A DNA stretch of 64,000 nt from contig CAYIEF010000002.1 in assembly GCA_964362365.1 (NCBI GenBank), positions 908 through 64,907 of the forward strand, given 5' to 3'. This stretch comes from an uncultured Methanosarcinales archaeon. Its GTDB lineage: Archaea; Nanobdellota; Nanobdellia; Woesearchaeales; GW2011-AR9. The first letter of the stretch is position 1, and every line of letters starts with the position of its first letter. A program made the position numbers. This document shows positions 27,001-33,000 of this stretch, piece by piece.

Positions 27001-30000
27001 TACTGCAAAAGGGGTTACCAAAGCAAATCCTTTGCGGAGGTATGCTGAATTAACTGGAATTTCACTCGATGAGATAGCGGTCTTTGGTGATTCTAGTAAT
27101 GATATGCTTATATTAGAATTAGTAGGGAAAGCAGGAGGATTGCCAGTATATGTTGGTAATAATCCAGAACAGGAAGCGTTAGTGCGGAGTTATCCACGTT
27201 ACTTTATTCCAGAGCAGCGAGGAGTGAAGGGATCAATAGAAGCTCTACAAAATATGCTTTCGAGTATATAATTACGCAATCTTTTTAAAGACTTTCAAAA
27301 AATGACTATCTAACTAAAATGGGAGGAATTACTATGAAAATTGTACCAGGAAATAAGGTTGTTGAAGGAAATGAGGTTCGTCAATTTAGAAGTGGTGCTC
27401 GGACTATTATCAGCGATGACCTTTATCACAAGGTTTTAGATTATACTGTTCTTTCTTGTGTTGATGTGGTCGCTTATTTTGATCGCTCACCTTCAGATCG
27501 GGTAATCCTGATGGTAGAAAGAAGAGAGAATCCAGCAAAAGGAATGCTCTGGTATCCAGGAGGTAGGCAATTCAAGAATGAGTCTTTTGAAGATACGGTA
27601 CGCAGGAAATTGCGAGAAGAAGTTGGCTTAGATGCTTCAGAATATAGCATCGAAAGGCAGATCGGCGCTTTTGGATTTAGCTGTCGCAGCGAAGATGCCA
27701 TGTACGGAGACTTGAAGGAAGGTTTTCATGCTAATGGCATAGATTATTTGGCTCGCATACGTAACGGAGATGCTGCAATTAAAGTAGATCATACCAGCAA
27801 GGGTTATCGCTGGGTAGATGAATCTATGCTGCGTAATTCTAAAGGTTTACATCCTTATATAGCAGAAGTAATGAATGCTGCACAGATATTTGATGAGCCT
27901 TTCACGAATATAGATTACTCTTTTGAAGAGTAAGTGAGTTTTACGCATAGGACGGCTACTGATTAAAAATTTCTAATTCACTAGTTTTAAAAAGAAGGAT
28001 TCGCAATTCTTGCTATGGCTCATCTAGGTAAAATACTGCGCGGCATAGGATTAGTATTCGGTATGACTTTTATCGCTGCCATGTTTAGTTATGCTACCCG
28101 GGTTATCGTGGCCAGAAAGCTAGGGCCGGAACAATTTGGCTTGTTCTCAGCGGTGCTAACTTTCATCTTGTTTTTGTTATTTTTCCGCGATCTTGGTTTA
28201 GGAAGCGCGCTGACTAATTTTATCGCTAAATATAGAGTAGAAGAAAAATATAATGAAATCAAAACCGCAATTTATTCTACCTTTTGTATGCAACTTCTAA
28301 GTTCCGCTCTAATAGGGATCGTCATTATCGCCTTTTCAGGGTATCTCTCAGTGCATTATTTTAAGATCCCGGAATCGAAAATAATTTTGCTGATCCTAGT
28401 GATCTATACTATGACTAGTTTCTTATTTATTATCACCAAATTTATTCTTAATGGTTTTCAGGACACCATACCCTATTCCCTCATGGAAGTAGGAAAAAAT
28501 CTTTTTATCTTGCTGCTCTCTGTGCTTCTTCTTCGCTATAATTATGGCATTCTGGCGGCAGCAATACCCTATGCCTTAGTGTGCATAGTTTTGTTCTTCC
28601 TGCTTCTGCCCTTCATTCGACGCAATATTTCTTTTTCCAAATACAAAATAGTTCATTTCAAAGAAATCAGCCGCGATCTTCTGCTGTTTGGATTACCCTT
28701 AATGGCTGCAGATATCGGCGGAAAGATAATCGCTTATACTGATACTATTATGTTAACCCATTTTAGCTCTTTGTCTGAAGTAGGGATTTACAATGTTGTT
28801 CTTCCGACTTCTCTTTTCTTTATCCACGTCAGCAGGGCGATTTCGGCGATAGTTTTTCCTATCTCCTCAGAACTTTCTTTCAAAAAAGATTTTAAAAATC
28901 TCGCTAAAGGCATCTCGCTGCTGTATAAATATACTCTGGCCTTGGTGATCCCTTTAATCTTTATTCTTTTTGCGTTTGCAAATCACTATCTGCTTATTTT
29001 CTTTGGGAAAGAATATGTGGTAGGAACGTTAGCGTTTCGCATTCTTTTAGTCGGCTCAATGTTTTTTATGATCGCTTCAGTAAATAATATTATCATCTCC
29101 AGCATGGGCCAGCCAAAGACAGTTACTAAAATAATATTACTCTCCGCTTTATTAAACGTGGTCTTAAATCTATTTCTCATCCCTTTATTTGGCATAGATG
29201 GAGCAGCGCTGTCGACTACCTTGGCTTATTTGCTGACCCTTATCCTTTCAACCCATACTTTAATAAAATCTGTTGGTGTTCCATCGCCTTATCTGCACTG
29301 GCTGAAATTATGCCTGAGCGCAGCAGTTTTTGTGATGACTGTTTTTTATATCACTAGGGTACTTCAATACAGTATTTATGTGGAAATAATCTTAGCCTTT
29401 ATTTTTGCTTTCATTATCTATGTTTTATTATTATACCTTTTTAATATCATTGATTTTTTGGAATTAAAGGTAACCCTATTAAAAATTTTTAAAAAATAAG
29501 AGATAAAATAATAAAAATGAGCAATCCAAAAAGTTCGACGGTACGGAGAACAGAATATAGTGCTGCTCTTAAGCAGTTTAAAATTGTATTTGAGGATTTC
29601 GATACTTGCGAGATAGGTTACTGTCTATTACGAAATTTTGAATTTCTTTTTGATACTCGCTTCCCTTGGGAGGGATTGGACCTGGTGGTTGGTAAAGATG
29701 ATTTTGCACAAGTAAACGAAATTTTGCTTCGGAATGGTTTTACCGAACGAACACAGCAATTTTCTCTACAGCATAAAGCCTATTTTAAAATAGTTAACGG
29801 AGTGAGGCTGCATTTTGATATACAAGTTGGCGGAGTATATTGGAATGATATGAAGTATATTGGCGAATCAATTATCGCGAATCGAGTACGAAAGGATTTT
29901 TTCTATATTCCTTGCGCAAATGATACATTCTTAATGCTTCTGGTCCATTCAATTCTTGGCAAACGTTATTTCAAGCCTAAATATCAGGAGATTTTGGGCT

Positions 30001-33000
30001 CTTTATTAGACCAGGGGTTAGTTGATGAGGAGATGGTCATTAAACATTTATCTATTCTTTTTAGCACGAAAATGGCTACAAAAATTGTAACATTAGTAAA
30101 AATGAAGAATTTCAAACAGATTCCCATCGCTGCTTTATTATCTATCTTTGTCGGCAAGAAACCTGCGCGCCTTGCTACTTTAGGAGCACTTATGGTTAGA
30201 TGGGTACGCTGGAAACGCCCTCTGAAACCGCATCCTTTAATCAGCATTGTTGGTCCTGATGGTGCTGGAAAATCAACTTTAGTACATTCTTTGCACACTT
30301 ATTTGTTGGCACATAAAAGGAAAGTCGCGGTTGTTTACATGGGGAGAGGCAGGAGACATATTTTACCTTTCATGGCTTTAGGGAGAAAATATAAAAGTGC
30401 AGAAAAAAAGCGTGATGCTAATGCAGTTTACGACGGTGGTGCTTTTCGTAATACTTCTTTTACGCGTTCCTTACTCTACACCTTCTCTTCCCTATTATTT
30501 GTATCAGATCTATTGTTGCGTTACTGGCTGGTGATTTTTCCATTACGGATGCGTAAAAGAATGGTAATTACAGACCGTTACTGTACTGACATAATACTGA
30601 TGAAAAATGTTCCTTTCTGGTGGAAGAAAGCGCTTTATTCTTTATTTCCTAAACCTACTATTTCTATTTTATTGTACAACACGCCAGAAATCCTTCACCA
30701 ACGGCGCCCGCAGGAGACGGTTCAGGAGCTGCAGAGACAGATGGGCATTTTTAATAGGTTAAACTATGATCTGCGGGTGGAAACCAAAAGCTTTGAAGAA
30801 GATAAACAGAAAGTTGTTGATTTTGTGATGGCCAGATTGCTGGTGGATTGGTATTAATGCTTATTTTGAGTTTTTTTGAGCGTTAATTGCCGATATAGAT
30901 CAACAAATTGTTTTGTAACCATTTTAGTGTCAAACTGTCTTGATTTCTGATAGGCATTTTCGGCTAATTTCTTTCCTAATTGCGGATTTTTTAATAATCT
31001 ATTTATCTGTAAAGCTAACGAGACAACATCTCCTGGCGTAGCCATGAGCACTTCTTTTTCTGGTTCAACTATCTCGCGCAGTTCTGGTAGATCAGTAGTT
31101 ACTACCGGCGTCTTACAAGCTATTGCTTCCAATAAACAAGATGGATTTCCTTCAGTAGCAGTAAGATCAAGATAGGGAAGAACCACTACGTTCGCGAGAT
31201 TCACATATTCAACCACATCAAGATCGTCAGTGATAACTTTGATATTAGGCTTATCTTTAACTGAATTAAAAAATTCTTGATCAGGATAATCACGAGGAGC
31301 GATTATAATTTGTGCTTCAATAGATGGACTTGCTTTCACTACGTTTTGCAATCCTTTTTTGAAATAGGTGCTTCCATAGTAAAAAACAATTTTTTTATCG
31401 GAATAACCATATTTTTTTTTAAGATTTTTTTTATCTAAAGGCACAAATTTTTCTGTATCGAGGTGCGAGCGGATAACTTTAATTTTTTCTTTCTTTACTC
31501 CATGGCTTAGGAGTTTTTCGGCCATGACTTGTGTAGGAACAGTTACGACGTCAACAAAATTTAAGATTCTGGAAAAGTATAAAGATCCCCCTGCGGAGCG
31601 GGAGTACGATTTTAGGGTATGGATGGTTTTAGCGTTTTTCTGATATCTCTTGGCAAGGATAGTCTTAAACGCAAATAAAGGGGAAGCGCTGAAATTATGG
31701 ATGACATCAAAAGTATGCGGTTGAGCTTTTATTTTGGAGAGGAATCCAGATACTTTTTTATCAGAAATAACTGTAATCTCCCCATATTGTGACAATTCTT
31801 TGCTAAAATTGTTAGCAGTGATGTGGGTGGCTTCTTTGGTTACTTTTGATTCTCTGGTGATTAAGGCTATTTTCATCTGGAAGCGTGAATCTTGTTTATT
31901 TTCCGTATTTTATAATTTTTTTAGCCGACGTCGCACTGCCTGAGCTGTTTCGGCTAATCCTAATTTCTGTATCCTGCGCATTGTTCGCCGTAATTGTCGC
32001 CAATGACCAAACAAGGTCAACCGATATGATCCAGGAGCATGGAAGCGTATGTACTTATGTCGTAATTGGGCGGAAATCTTAGTGGATTGCAGGCTATCGG
32101 ATTGTTTGTTAATCTCTTTGAGCAGTTGAGGCTCTCCCAATGCTTGAGCGAATGCACATAAAGTCTGAGCATCCATATAGGTCGGTTTTTCACTTCCTTT
32201 TCTTCCTTTATGATAACGTGGAGCAAGGTCTAGATAGTCCTCCAGCTCATTAACGACTCGAAGCAAGATTATCTCACTATCAAAAGAGCTTACGGTATGG
32301 AGGCGGGAGAGTAGGTTGTTGATTTCCAGGGGATGGTAAGACCACTTTAATCTATAGTAGGCAAAGACCAGTTGCTGCACCGCTGGACAAGTTGCATTTC
32401 GCAATTCTTTTGAAATGGAGCAGGATCCAAAATCACCTTCTGAGTAAGCAGCATGGAGCAGAGCAGCAGCTATGGAAGTGCTTGGTTTTTTTAACCAGGC
32501 TATGATGCTGGCGGTGCCGATAAGGTGAGCTAATTGTGTTTTTCCTGATCGGCGATAGCAGCCATTAAAGATTTTAGTAGCTAGCTTATACGCATTGATG
32601 ACCAGAAGAAGATCTTCTTCTTTGTAACCAGCCTTAACCATTTGGTTATAGAGCTGAAGATTGGTTTGAGCAAATGGTTGATCCATGCCTGCTTCTTAGT
32701 GAATTGATTTATATGTTTTGTGACTTTTATTTCCTTGATAGAATAGTTGATAAGACTAAAGAATCACAATGTATTTAAAAGTAAGCAGGGTTTGTTTTTC
32801 GATGGTCAGAAAAATTCTGGTAAGCGACGCTATCGATCTAGAGGCATTTAGAGAAGGAATTGGAGAAAAGAACAAGGATTTTTATGTAGATGTCCGCTCA
32901 GAAATCTCGGCAGAAGAACTGAAGGCGATCATCAAAGATTATGATGGGATTGTCTTTCGAAGCAGGACAAAATTAGATCAAGAAGTGCTTAGCAATTCTA

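Follow-up and report, generated by a model that had tools for sequence, protein, structure and literature searches.

Two genes in the window, meaning the whole 64,000-nucleotide stretch that was analyzed, encode proteins best explained, from their sequences, as anciently diverged paralogs of a DPANN-archaeal two-domain family. Each joins an N-terminal nucleotidyltransferase (NTase)-fold domain related to NTP_transf_5 to a C-terminal kinase of the thymidylate kinase (TMK) fold. We tentatively favor, with somewhat less than even confidence, a role as a coupled kinase and nucleotidyl- or phospho-group transferase that would make a phosphate-linked decoration on a lipid-linked glycan. The genes lie in an island of surface-glycan genes in an ultra-small archaeon from groundwater. 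Both ORFs of the original prediction, 29517-30857 and 59132-60430, were present with exactly those coordinates:

29517..30857, + strand: fusion gene A (subfamily A, 446 aa), diverged NTP_transf_5 domain plus TMK-fold kinase
29517..30215, + strand: N-terminal domain of A (residues 1-233), Pol-beta-type NTase core followed by a helical subdomain
30237..30854, + strand: C-terminal domain of A (residues 241-446), thymidylate-kinase-fold P-loop kinase
59132..60430, + strand: fusion gene B (subfamily B, 432 aa), typical NTP_transf_5 motifs plus TMK-fold kinase

The family HMM gave 456 and 509 bits for A and B, which were its only copies in the window. The two proteins aligned colinearly over 365 residues with 22% identity (E 2e-10), a match far beyond chance that bears out their proposed paralogy. 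The NTase core of A comprises strands at residues 35-39, 54-58, and 86-115, and subfamily A conserves LLRN (37-40), LDL (54-56, including D55), D101, W109, D136, and H144 in this domain, while B carries LFKC (27-30), NLDLLF (40-45), HLH (90-92), W97, ED (120-121), and H129. The originally described LDL[VL][VF] and HxD/HLH motifs were recovered as LDLVV (54-58) and HFD (99-101) in A and as LDLLF (41-45) and HLH in B. The C-terminal domain of A contains Walker A (246-254, nt 30252-30278), R335-Y336, DRYxxD (353-358, nt 30573-30590), and lid arginines R396/R397, and that of B contains Walker A (228-236, nt 59813-59839), R312-Y313, DRYFYD (330-335, nt 60119-60136), and R373. The DRY motif was thus found in both proteins (DRYCTD in A); the GxDGAGKST form of Walker A held for A (GPDGAGKST) but not for B, in which Asn replaces Asp at the third position (GMNGAGKST).

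Pfam matches to both domains in A and B agreed with the predicted architecture, with Thymidylate_kin above threshold in B (42.3 bits) and below its gathering score of 27 in A (21.3 bits), and NTP_transf_5 at 24.4 bits in A and 25.4 bits in B (gathering score 31.2). PF14907 was matched by 27 of the 33 N-terminal domains tested, and the N-domain profile reached threshold-passing NTP_transf_5 members at E ~1e-20. Full-length homology to a single-function family, considered in the original prediction, held for the C-terminal domain at the level of the fold and not of orthology, as the dTMP kinase model TIGR00041 gave 22 bits for A and 31 bits for B against a cut-off of 83 bits. An AF2 model of the fusion (pLDDT 94.9, pTM 0.90) is best explained by an N-terminal domain packed rigidly onto the TMK-fold domain in a soluble protein. 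Kyte-Doolittle 19-mers and the model revealed no evident membrane-anchoring segment, the top 19-mer (1.67) lying inside a packed helix.

The kinase domain looks catalytically intact. It keeps all ATP/Mg-side residues of thymidylate kinase, and the residues conserved at ≥90% in both subfamilies are GxxGxGK, Y274, R335-Y336, D353-R354-Y355-x-x-D358, P378, and R396, with G246, G249, G251, K252, Y274, R354, D358, P378, and R396 fully invariant and T254 of Walker A conserved at 81-97%. It resembles the Sulfolobus tokodaii thymidylate kinase ST1543 (PDB 2plr; PF02223) in the Asp/Asn at the third Walker A position, the base-binding R335, DRY, and the lid arginines, but differs in the 230-residue N-terminal NTase-fold domain, the invariant D358 replacing the base-reading SxxAYQ motif, a longer helix pair (286-345), and its occurrence in two or three copies in glycan loci, in contrast to the single housekeeping gene for TMK.

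For the N-terminal domain, stand-alone NTP_transf_5 proteins (PF14907) that pass the Pfam threshold at 58-66 bits have their [DN]xD, HxH, W, PSxED, and HxxFEN motifs in common with subfamily B. Unlike these, the domains of A and B are joined to a kinase and score 24-26 bits, under the gathering threshold, and in subfamily A other residues take the place of HxH and the first DxD position, a loss through which its domain may work differently or be inactive. Against the closest solved folds, ANT(2'') AadB (4xje), LnuA (4wh5), and MenT1 (8an4), the fusion shows only 8-12% identity, lacks an antibiotic or toxin-antitoxin context, and has an incomplete canonical Pol-beta signature (hG[GS], DxD, and third carboxylate) in both A and B. 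D55, W109, D136, and H144 are kept in both subfamilies at ~20% identity between them, and this conservation, together with the stand-alone-type motifs of B, argues for a working site.

The family comprises several hundred sequence clusters, and named sources were all Nano/Woesearchaeota (DPANN) MAGs except for one Altiarchaeales match. Walker A was present in 75 of 75 long proteins among the top N-domain-profile matches, and on such sequence evidence the fusion is the dominant architecture for this N-domain type. A more distant protein, a triple fusion that combines APH kinase, NTP_transf_5, and TMK-like domains, was encoded between Wzy and GT4 genes. In line with the original prediction, a literature search found no characterized enzyme with this fusion, and source names were all generic. 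The gene neighborhood in the window included:

28015..29499, + strand: Wzx-type flippase (Polysacc_synt), directly 5' of A
30854..31876, - strand: GT4 glycosyltransferase, overlapping A by 4 nt in convergent orientation, found repeatedly as the partner of subfamily A
48537..50093, - strand: 517-aa GT-B-like protein with weak Glyphos_transf/Epimerase_2 matches, 9 kb from B here
52757..53461, + strand: CDP-alcohol phosphotransferase (AF2299-like, E 2.5e-12), recurrent subfamily B neighbor
53488..58108, + strand: lineage-specific PAPS cassette, consisting of the next four genes
53488-54339, + strand: inositol-monophosphatase-family (CysQ-like) gene
54715-56424, + strand: wHTH plus pyruvate-kinase (PK) gene
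56424-57569, + strand: sat
57572-58108, + strand: cysC
58101..59135, + strand: GT4 glycosyltransferase (344 aa), translationally coupled to cysC upstream and B downstream
60436-61563, - strand: GT4, convergent, 3' of B
61573-61941, - strand: DUF2304, part of the block 60436..62591
61923-62591, - strand: GT2, part of the same block

The reported GT4 adjacency was confirmed for both genes, A overlapping one GT4 and B flanked by two. The likely start of the 344-aa GT4 is ATG 58101, giving an 8-nt overlap with the cysC stop, and the B start overlaps the GT4 stop by 4 nt. As PK, sat, cysC, GT4, and B run in one direction and either overlap or stand 2 nt apart, B is last in the transcription unit, as originally described for the sat-cysC operon. 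The GT4-DUF2304-GT2 block is conserved, adjoins STT3/AglB in relatives, and probably initiates the lipid-linked glycan.

A survey of 63 fetched loci (about 61 distinct, with two duplicate pairs; homolog counts include the window) identified homologs of Wzx in 31, the GT-B-like protein in 18, CDP-OH_P_transf in about 15-16, and STT3 in 8. GT4 genes adjoined nearly every fusion copy, NUDIX and HAD genes were frequent neighbors, and glycan loci carried two or three fusion copies. The usual order in subfamily A was a Wzx flippase, then A, facing a GT4, with Wzx directly 5' of A in roughly 29 of ~40 A-type loci. Subfamily B kept company with GT4, the CDP-alcohol phosphotransferase, the GT-B-like protein (directly adjoining B in most B-type loci), and the AglB-GT2-DUF2304-GT4 block; locus L037 combined both as a compact STT3-GT2-DUF2304-GT4-CDPOH-GT4-B operon convergent with Wzx-A.

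In the favored reading, A and B would be standing components of a locus building a lipid-linked glycan that Wzx would flip and AglB transfer, each fusion working beside a GT4. The two domains would act on the glycan in sequence, through a coupled pair of phosphoryl transfers to a single substrate: the kinase domain would install or extend a phosphate with Mg-ATP, and the NTase-fold domain would then esterify that phosphate or a nearby hydroxyl, drawing an NMP, phospho-, or glycosyl group from a nucleotide-activated donor. The glycan intermediate built by the adjacent GT4 would come to carry a phosphodiester-type decoration, added at the cytoplasmic face ahead of flipping. This reading lies close to the earlier alternative, in which a kinase or nucleotidyltransferase would modify the glycan with phosphate or a nucleotide. 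By analogy, the only experimentally studied parallel is PsmK/PsmN of the lasso peptide pseudomycoidin, in which PsmK places a phosphate on a hydroxyl, and the addition of a hexose to that phosphate then requires PsmN, an "uncharacterised nucleotidyltransferase" family member that needs its DxD (PMC6993621). The likeness, drawn by family description, is that of a P-loop kinase and such an NTase, there at one shared site; PsmN was modeled on ANT(2'') (PMC6993621), the second-best structural match of the fusion N-domain, and its activity was never reconstituted in vitro. Unlike the fusion, PsmK and PsmN are separate proteins, PsmK is HPr-kinase-like rather than TMK-like, and the substrate is a peptide rather than the presumed glycan. 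Counting against the favored reading, the kinase pocket keeps TMK nucleotide-binding features (P-loop Asp/Asn contacting the 3'-OH, base-binding Arg, and an alpha-2-like helix) that would better fit a small nucleotide-like acceptor than a lipid-linked glycan, the nearby NUDIX and HAD genes suggest small-molecule nucleotide-sugar chemistry, and a membrane anchor is not evident.

The originally proposed PAPS-dependent sulfotransferase, a novel one derived from the NMP-kinase fold and sulfating the glycan of the adjacent GT4, is not supported and now looks very unlikely. In its favor, B closes the coupled PK-sat-cysC-GT4-B unit, which a CysQ-like gene precedes, no recognizable sulfotransferase occurs in the 64-kb window, and all four other loci with sat/cysC place the cassette beside a GT4 neighboring a fusion gene, in three arrangements. 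However, the conserved Walker A Lys and Ser/Thr, DRY, and lid Arg are ATP/Mg features, neither A nor B matched a Pfam Sulfotransfer family even at E ≤ 1 or displayed a sulfotransferase fold or motif, and of ~61 other loci only 4 had sat/cysC at 10 kb or less from a fusion gene (~57 lacked it in that range). In the closest relative, whose B ortholog is 72% identical, a CTP_transf_like-PEP_mutase (phosphonate) gene occupied the PAPS-cassette slot and no sat was found in 46 kb of the island. PAPS would not be a co-substrate of A or B, and the PK-sat-cysC-CysQ cassette would be a swappable lineage-specific module supplying, via another transferase, the same glycan with an anionic substituent. A lipid-carrier kinase is also very unlikely; here only the kinase domain would be active, phosphorylating polyprenol or dolichol obtained by scavenging (alternatively dolichyl phosphate) to make the carrier of the glycan, and the N-terminal domain would be a binding unit or scaffold. 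DPANN archaea are typically without lipid synthesis, so that a scavenged carrier lipid would need activation, the flippase and the putative initiating GT2-DUF2304 block adjoin, and the incomplete Pol-beta signature would suit a scaffold; yet the four conserved N-domain residues and the stand-alone motifs of B would be unexpected, as would two differently specialized paralogs per locus for one lipid and the absence of an evident membrane segment.

A donor-supply enzyme is possible, albeit rather doubtful, in which the substrate of the kinase would be a small alcohol, a sugar, or a nucleotide adduct phosphorylated on its ribose, and the NTase would join the product to a nucleotide, the CDP- or NDP-donor then serving the neighboring GT4, CDP-alcohol phosphotransferase, or TagF-like GT-B enzyme. 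This follows the logic of NadR, HldE, LicA/LicC, PAPS synthase, and CoA synthase, although PAPS synthase, NadR, CoA synthase, and HldE have HIGH/Rossmann-type nucleotidyltransferase domains, unlike the Pol-beta fold here, and kinase domains that are not of TMK type. The recurrence of B with CDP-OH_P_transf (~15 loci) and the GT-B-like protein (18 loci), users of CDP-activated donors, is consistent with such a role, as are the lack of a cytidylyltransferase within 10 kb at L002 and L005, the NUDIX and HAD neighbors cleaving NDP-X and X-P, the choline-kinase-like APH-type domain of the triple fusion, and a TMK-like pocket that looks suited to a nucleotide. On the other hand, to our knowledge, Pol-beta-fold NTases attack with a hydroxyl and none is known to form an NDP-X pyrophosphate bond; the closest solved N-domain folds nucleotidylate antibiotic sugar hydroxyls or tRNA ends, subfamily A pairs with Wzx and GT4 rather than CDP-alcohol enzymes, and the normal acceptor of TMK-type kinases is a phosphate, not an alcohol. 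A genuine pyrimidine NMP kinase (CMP, UMP, or dTMP to diphosphate) as the C-terminal domain, tethered to an NTase-fold transferase and clearing and recycling the NMP that CDP-alcohol-, CMP-sugar-, or phosphosugar-transferases encoded nearby set free, is unlikely. The TIGR00041 scores fall far under the equivalog cut-off, two or three GT4-tied copies per locus are odd for a housekeeping-type reaction, and the conserved N-domain active site is left unexplained, even though neighboring enzymes release CMP and the acceptor-side residues are kept (P-loop D248/N230, R335, DRY, and lid Arg). The invariant D358, in place of the base-reading TMK Ser, could with R335 read the cytosine amino group, and NMP recycling of this kind, if true, would matter to a nucleotide-scavenging DPANN cell.

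Two ORFs of the window, here termed A and B, were found exactly where originally predicted and encode a fusion ("the fusion") of an N-domain resembling the NTP_transf_5 (PF14907) nucleotidyltransferase (NTase) fold with a C-domain of the thymidylate kinase (TMK) P-loop fold:

29517-30857 (+), A, 446 aa: LDLVV at residues 54-58, HFD at 99-101, Walker A GPDGAGKST at 246-254, and DRY at 353-355
59132-60430 (+), B, 432 aa: LDLLF at residues 41-45, HLH at 90-92, Walker A GMNGAGKST at 228-236, and DRY at 330-332

All of the motifs attributed to the pair were present in both proteins, except that position 3 of the Walker A in B was Asn and not Asp; this position was Asp in 99% of the homologues grouping with A (subfamily A) and Asn in 97% of those grouping with B (subfamily B). 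The suggested paralogy was borne out by a pairwise alignment of A and B that was colinear over 365 residues (22% identity, E 2e-10), and a family HMM identified exactly two copies in the window, A and B, at 456 and 509 bits. Pfam returned the proposed order of NTP_transf_5 and Thymidylate_kin with weak matches, mostly under the gathering scores of 31.2 bits (PF14907) and 27 bits (PF02223): in A both Thymidylate_kin (21.3 bits) and NTP_transf_5 (24.4-26.1 bits) fell below, while in B Thymidylate_kin (42.3 bits) was above and NTP_transf_5 (25.4 bits) below. An AlphaFold2 model of the fusion, built from a 136-sequence alignment, reached a pLDDT of 94.9 and a pTM of 0.90, the high pTM suggesting that the two domains would be packed rigidly against each other. 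No convincing transmembrane segment for membrane anchoring was present in the fusion, and the protein is probably soluble.

Fold comparison placed the C-domain nearest to solved dTMP kinases; other kinases including adenylate, deoxynucleoside, guanylate, dephospho-CoA, and APS kinases as well as PPK2 scored at most 13.6, and a sulfotransferase was absent among the 60 structural matches listed. The C-domain profile also matched solved TMKs by sequence (E 7e-15 to 6e-8), and a PF02223 match was precomputed for many family members. The TMK motif set of Walker A GxxGxGK[ST], DR[YHF], and lid Arg (R396/R397 in A and R373 in B) was present in both proteins and conserved in both subfamilies. Despite sharing approximately 20% identity, the two subfamilies have in common, across 235 full-length sequences and numbered on A, the kinase-half residues G246xxG249xG251K252 with T254, Y274-x-G276, R335-Y336, D353-R354-Y355-x-x-D358, P378-x-P380, R396, and Q408. 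HMM alignment to solved TMKs superimposed R335 on the base-binding Arg, DRY on DRY, R396/R397 on the lid, Y274-x-G on the "YFPxR" segment, and D358 on the Ser at +5 after DRY. The thymine-reading S/T...YQ motif after DRY was not kept, and its Ser +5 was replaced by an invariant Asp (D358 in A and D335 in B). Conserved motifs point to an ATP/Mg side that is probably intact and to an acceptor pocket that is still nucleotide-pocket-like, in which the thymine-reading position of TMKs is taken by an invariant Asp. By fold and motifs, A and B are assigned to the TMK family and not to the dTMP kinase orthologues, since they scored 22.1 and 31.2 bits, respectively, against the NCBIfam TIGR00041 equivalog cut-off of 83.25 bits.

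The Pol-beta NTase fold was present in the N-domain, where D55, W109, D136, and H144 were common to both subfamilies. The canonical Pol-beta signature (hG[GS] x9-13 Dh[DE]h plus a third carboxylate) was incomplete in both proteins, reading LLRN...GLDL...D101 in A and LFKC...NLDL...HLH in B. PF14907 was matched by 27 of 33 family N-domains (best E 5e-9), and the N-domain profile retrieved stand-alone proteins that score above the PF14907 threshold (P0391 at 65.8 bits and P0390 at 58.2 bits). These stand-alone NTP_transf_5 proteins and subfamily B have the same [DN]xD, HxH, W, PSxED, and HxxFEN motifs; B itself contains the full PF14907 set (NLDLLF, HLH, W97, PSAED, and HALFEN) and A matches it only in part (GLDLVV, HFDIQ, WND, ANDT, and HSILGKR), in line with the variant pattern of its subfamily ([GS]xD, SFDxQ, WND, and HSILGKR). 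By these motifs, B would carry a normal NTP_transf_5 site and A a diverged variant. An inactive, degenerate NTase domain, as read from the missing hG[GS] and first Asp of DxD, was dropped as a firm conclusion because stand-alone members show the pattern of B; as they deviate likewise, the incomplete signature alone does not mean inactivity. Transitive homology and motifs identify the N-domain as a putative NTP_transf_5-type NTase. Its profile gave no meaningful match to PDB sequences and, in a word-indexed protein search, nothing beyond fragments of its own family, and a tblastn search of plasmids with a stand-alone NTP_transf_5 protein for annotated bacterial context gave no match.

Homologues numbered 248 for A and 135 for B, all from metagenomes or MAGs, with named sources being Nanoarchaeota or Woesearchaeota and annotations such as "hypothetical", "nucleotidyltransferase family", "ATP/GTP-binding", or "thymidylate kinase". 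A scan with one genome per species revealed 57 loci, all from Nano/Woesearchaeota MAGs (some of which bear the generic label "uncultured Methanosarcinales"), plus one partial match in Altiarchaeales. The window matches an assembly derived from the 0.1-um fraction of Hainich groundwater. Both subfamilies co-occur on single contigs, for example a 122,665-nt contig with proteins P0004 and P0127, and their genes are adjacent in some loci (L002/L040 and L034-L037). Searched exhaustively, the N-domain profile matched 1,387 cluster representatives (E <= 1e-3), of which 383 reached E <= 1e-10; the fusion is the dominant architecture, since a Walker A was present in all 75 proteins of at least 390 aa among the best 150 matches.

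Both domains belong to known superfamilies. No paper found on PF14907, NTP_transf_5, thymidylate kinase-like/nucleotidyltransferase fusions, or Woesearchaeota/AglB described the fusion, the confinement of its sampled occurrences to Nano/Woesearchaeota-type archaea, or its fixed position within loci linked to AglB. The only mention of PF14907 found was in a phosphonate survey, where a PEP mutase is "flanked by thymidylate kinase and PF14907" (PMC8942020), and the flanking gene is probably the same fusion, as in locus L006 of a relative.

The window is a surface-glycan island over all 64 kb, including genes for GDP-mannose dehydratases, a NeuB/CMP-sugar synthetase fusion, a UDP-GlcNAc 2-epimerase, ATP-grasp enzymes, a carbamoyltransferase, an MBOAT, PMT_2 proteins, and several GT2 and GT4 enzymes and methyltransferases. 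A homology-based context survey covered 63 fetched loci, approximately 61 of them distinct after two duplicate pairs. The Wzx flippase gene directly preceded subfamily A in roughly 29 of the approximately 40 A-type loci (a Wzx homologue occurred in 31/63 loci overall), and subfamily A was usually convergent with a GT4. Subfamily B had a GT4 directly upstream, in many loci a CDP-alcohol phosphotransferase upstream (15 loci; AF2299-like in the window, E 2.5e-12), a directly adjoining GT-B-like protein (18 loci) that is approximately 520 aa long and matches Glyphos_transf/Epimerase_2 weakly, and a GT2-DUF2304-GT4 block abutting STT3/AglB (8 loci). These elements formed a compact STT3-GT2-DUF2304-GT4-CDPOH-GT4-B unit in L037, convergent with Wzx-A. 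The distant relative P0397 (840 aa, L065 8001-10523) has an N-terminal APH-type (aminoglycoside/choline kinase-like) domain before the NTP_transf_5 and TMK-like domains, and its gene lies between those of a Wzy_C polymerase/ligase (Wzy-like) and a GT4; the cluster also includes a Wzx gene, located four genes further downstream. The constant partner of the fusion is a GT4 in a flippase/AglB-type pathway, because the neighborhoods of A, B, and P0397 all have one. Because the GT4s that accompany A and B share hardly any similarity (E 0.013) and are not close paralogues, a duplicated GT4-plus-fusion module was rejected.

In the window, translational coupling links the genes for a pyruvate kinase (PK; 54715-56424), sat, cysC, the GT4 (ATG at 58101), and B, and an inositol monophosphatase-family (CysQ-like) gene precedes them. 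The original prediction suggested that the two proteins could be PAPS-dependent sulfotransferases or, alternatively, kinases or nucleotidyltransferases acting on the glycan. No sulfotransferase family was matched, nor a sulfotransferase fold among the structural matches listed, the fusion has a Mg-ATP Walker A and not a PAPS-binding 5'-PSB/3'-PB motif in its place, and sat/cysC co-occurred within 10 kb on each side in only 4 of the approximately 61 other loci (L011 and L012 beside A; L050 and L051 beside B). In L006, whose B orthologue is 72% identical, the gene order is 2-hydroxyacid dehydrogenase, methyltransferase, a CTP_transf_like-PEP_mutase fusion, CDP-OH_P_transf, GT4, and B, such that a Fom1-like phosphonate cassette occupies the slot of the CysQ-PK-sat-cysC genes of the window; the L006/L007 contig had no sat in the approximately 46 kb surrounding its two fusion genes. 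In L004, a gene of CTP_transf_like-PPDK type separates B from its upstream GT4. Given the rarity of sat/cysC within 10 kb and the different content of the L006 slot, the PAPS genes represent an exchangeable accessory module, and their status as a conserved partner was rejected. A new sulfotransferase is unlikely; this reading is kept at a very small probability because in 5/5 sat/cysC-positive loci (window included) the PAPS cassette lies beside the GT4 neighboring a fusion gene and the window is without a recognizable sulfotransferase. Scarcely more probable is that the fusion provides the missing transferase for the anionic group of the cassette, i.e., sulfate from PAPS/APS in the window and phosphonate from CMP-phosphonate in relatives, the TMK-derived P-loop domain having turned into a nucleotide-anion transferase helped by the NTase-fold domain. 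If true, archaea would sulfate and phosphonylate their glycans by a new route that involves none of the known sulfotransferase families.

The fusion joins a TMK-fold kinase, whose catalytic set is intact, to a conserved NTP_transf_5 site in a lipid-linked glycan pathway beside GT4s, and we tentatively favor the two domains acting consecutively to place a phosphate-linked decoration on the GT4 product. The kinase domain would make or extend a phosphate using Mg-ATP, and the NTase-fold domain would then esterify that phosphate, or a neighboring hydroxyl, from a nucleotide-activated donor, yielding the decorated GT4 product before flipping. In the only experimental parallel, pseudomycoidin biosynthesis, the kinase PsmK installs a phosphate, to which one or two hexoses are added only if the "uncharacterised nucleotidyltransferase" PsmN is present; PsmN has been modeled on ANT(2'') and requires its DxD motif (PMC6993621). 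Activity of PsmN in vitro is unproven, and its likeness to the N-domain is one of family name and ANT(2'') modeling. A more doubtful explanation is a small-molecule activation enzyme feeding CDP/NDP-linked donors to the neighboring CDP-alcohol-type transferases, which is consistent with the nucleotide-like acceptor pocket, NUDIX/HAD neighbors, the APH-type domain of the distant relative, and the general logic of kinase-NTase fusions; against it, we know of no Pol-beta NTase that forms NDP-X bonds. A pyrimidine-NMP recycling kinase is unlikely, and a carrier-lipid kinase with a non-catalytic N-domain is more improbable still.

To our knowledge, PF14907 has no biochemically defined reaction, and its junction here to a kinase of well-understood fold, with a confident model, makes the family chemistry directly testable. 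The fusion is found almost without exception in the AglB-linked glycan loci of Nano/Woesearchaeota, episymbiotic or ultra-small archaea that presumably make contact with their hosts through surface glycans. Its reaction, once known, would reveal a decoration step, probably phosphate-linked, lacking a counterpart in characterized archaeal Agl pathways. The fusion is a good, tractable target for defining both PF14907 chemistry and DPANN glycan decoration.

The cassettes exchanged at one position of the conserved operon were as follows:

52757-58108, window: CysQ-like/PK/sat/cysC (sulfate)
5190-9986, L006: Fom1-like CTP_transf_like-PEP_mutase fusion (phosphonate)
3794-8457, L004: 980-aa CTP_transf_like + PPDK_N + PEP-utilizers protein

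Each of the three is linked to PEP and adjoins a CDP-alcohol phosphotransferase and a GT4; the cassettes of the window and L006 are additionally bordered by genes for a 2-hydroxyacid dehydrogenase and a methyltransferase. The interchange of cassettes for sulfate, phosphonate, and PEP utilization amounts to a natural experiment in swapping anionic glycan decorations, and one may ask if APS- or CMP-phosphonate-type donors can be used by the CDP-alcohol phosphotransferase. The window encodes a complete PAPS-synthesis set and a CysQ-like phosphatase, yet none of its ORFs of at least 100 aa matched a sulfotransferase family, which rejected a hidden sulfotransferase among them; a relaxed scan (E <= 1) of ten unannotated or previously unscanned ORFs also found none. 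ORFs 8338-10296 (652 aa), 13178-15004 (608 aa), 40091-41332 (413 aa), and 19898-20938 (-, 345 aa) had no significant family match.

A pyruvate kinase barrel domain accompanied the ATP sulfurylase in 4/4 sat-positive places of the lineage, including:

54715-58108, window: PK gene with an extra N-terminal winged-helix domain and a 1-nt overlap with sat
5330-8125, L050: one 931-aa protein of PK + PUA_2 + ATP-sulfurylase + APS kinase
13408-15672 (-), L012: 753-aa protein of PK + PUA_2 + sulfurylase

The association suggests that PAPS synthesis is coupled to a regeneration of ATP driven by PEP; we know of no described PK-sulfurylase fusion. Adjoining the PK-sat gene and a GT4 in L012 (12491-13411, -) is a membrane-tethered APS kinase with an N-terminal PQ-loop/SWEET-like membrane domain.

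The GT-B-like protein, the most constant immediate neighbor of subfamily B, matched no protein of solved structure by sequence and could act as a transferase for CDP-alcohols or CMP-sugars. The window copy is displaced, 9 kb from B on the other strand:

48537-50093 (-), window
11320-12873, L002
11347-12876, L004
8404-9993, L005

STT3/AglB directly follows the GT4-DUF2304-GT2 block in relatives (L006 12033-17134), where the window has a DegT aminotransferase (60436-63900); STT3 was not found anywhere in the 64-kb window. A winged helix-turn-helix (wHTH) protein (36062-36688) overlaps a DUF6036 nucleotidyltransferase (36685-37344) in what looks like an AbiEi/AbiEii-type toxin-antitoxin pair, and a 103-aa Pol-beta/NTP_transf_2 minimal NTase (50219-50530) is possibly the MNT half of an MNT-HEPN pair. 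The 604-aa protein at 43549-45363, a fused nonulosonic acid synthesis and activation enzyme, combines a CMP-sugar synthetase (CTP_transf_3), NeuB, and a SAF domain and is followed downstream by the UDP-GlcNAc 2-epimerase and then an ATP-grasp enzyme; larger NeuB fusions of about 900-980 aa were present in L003 and L006.
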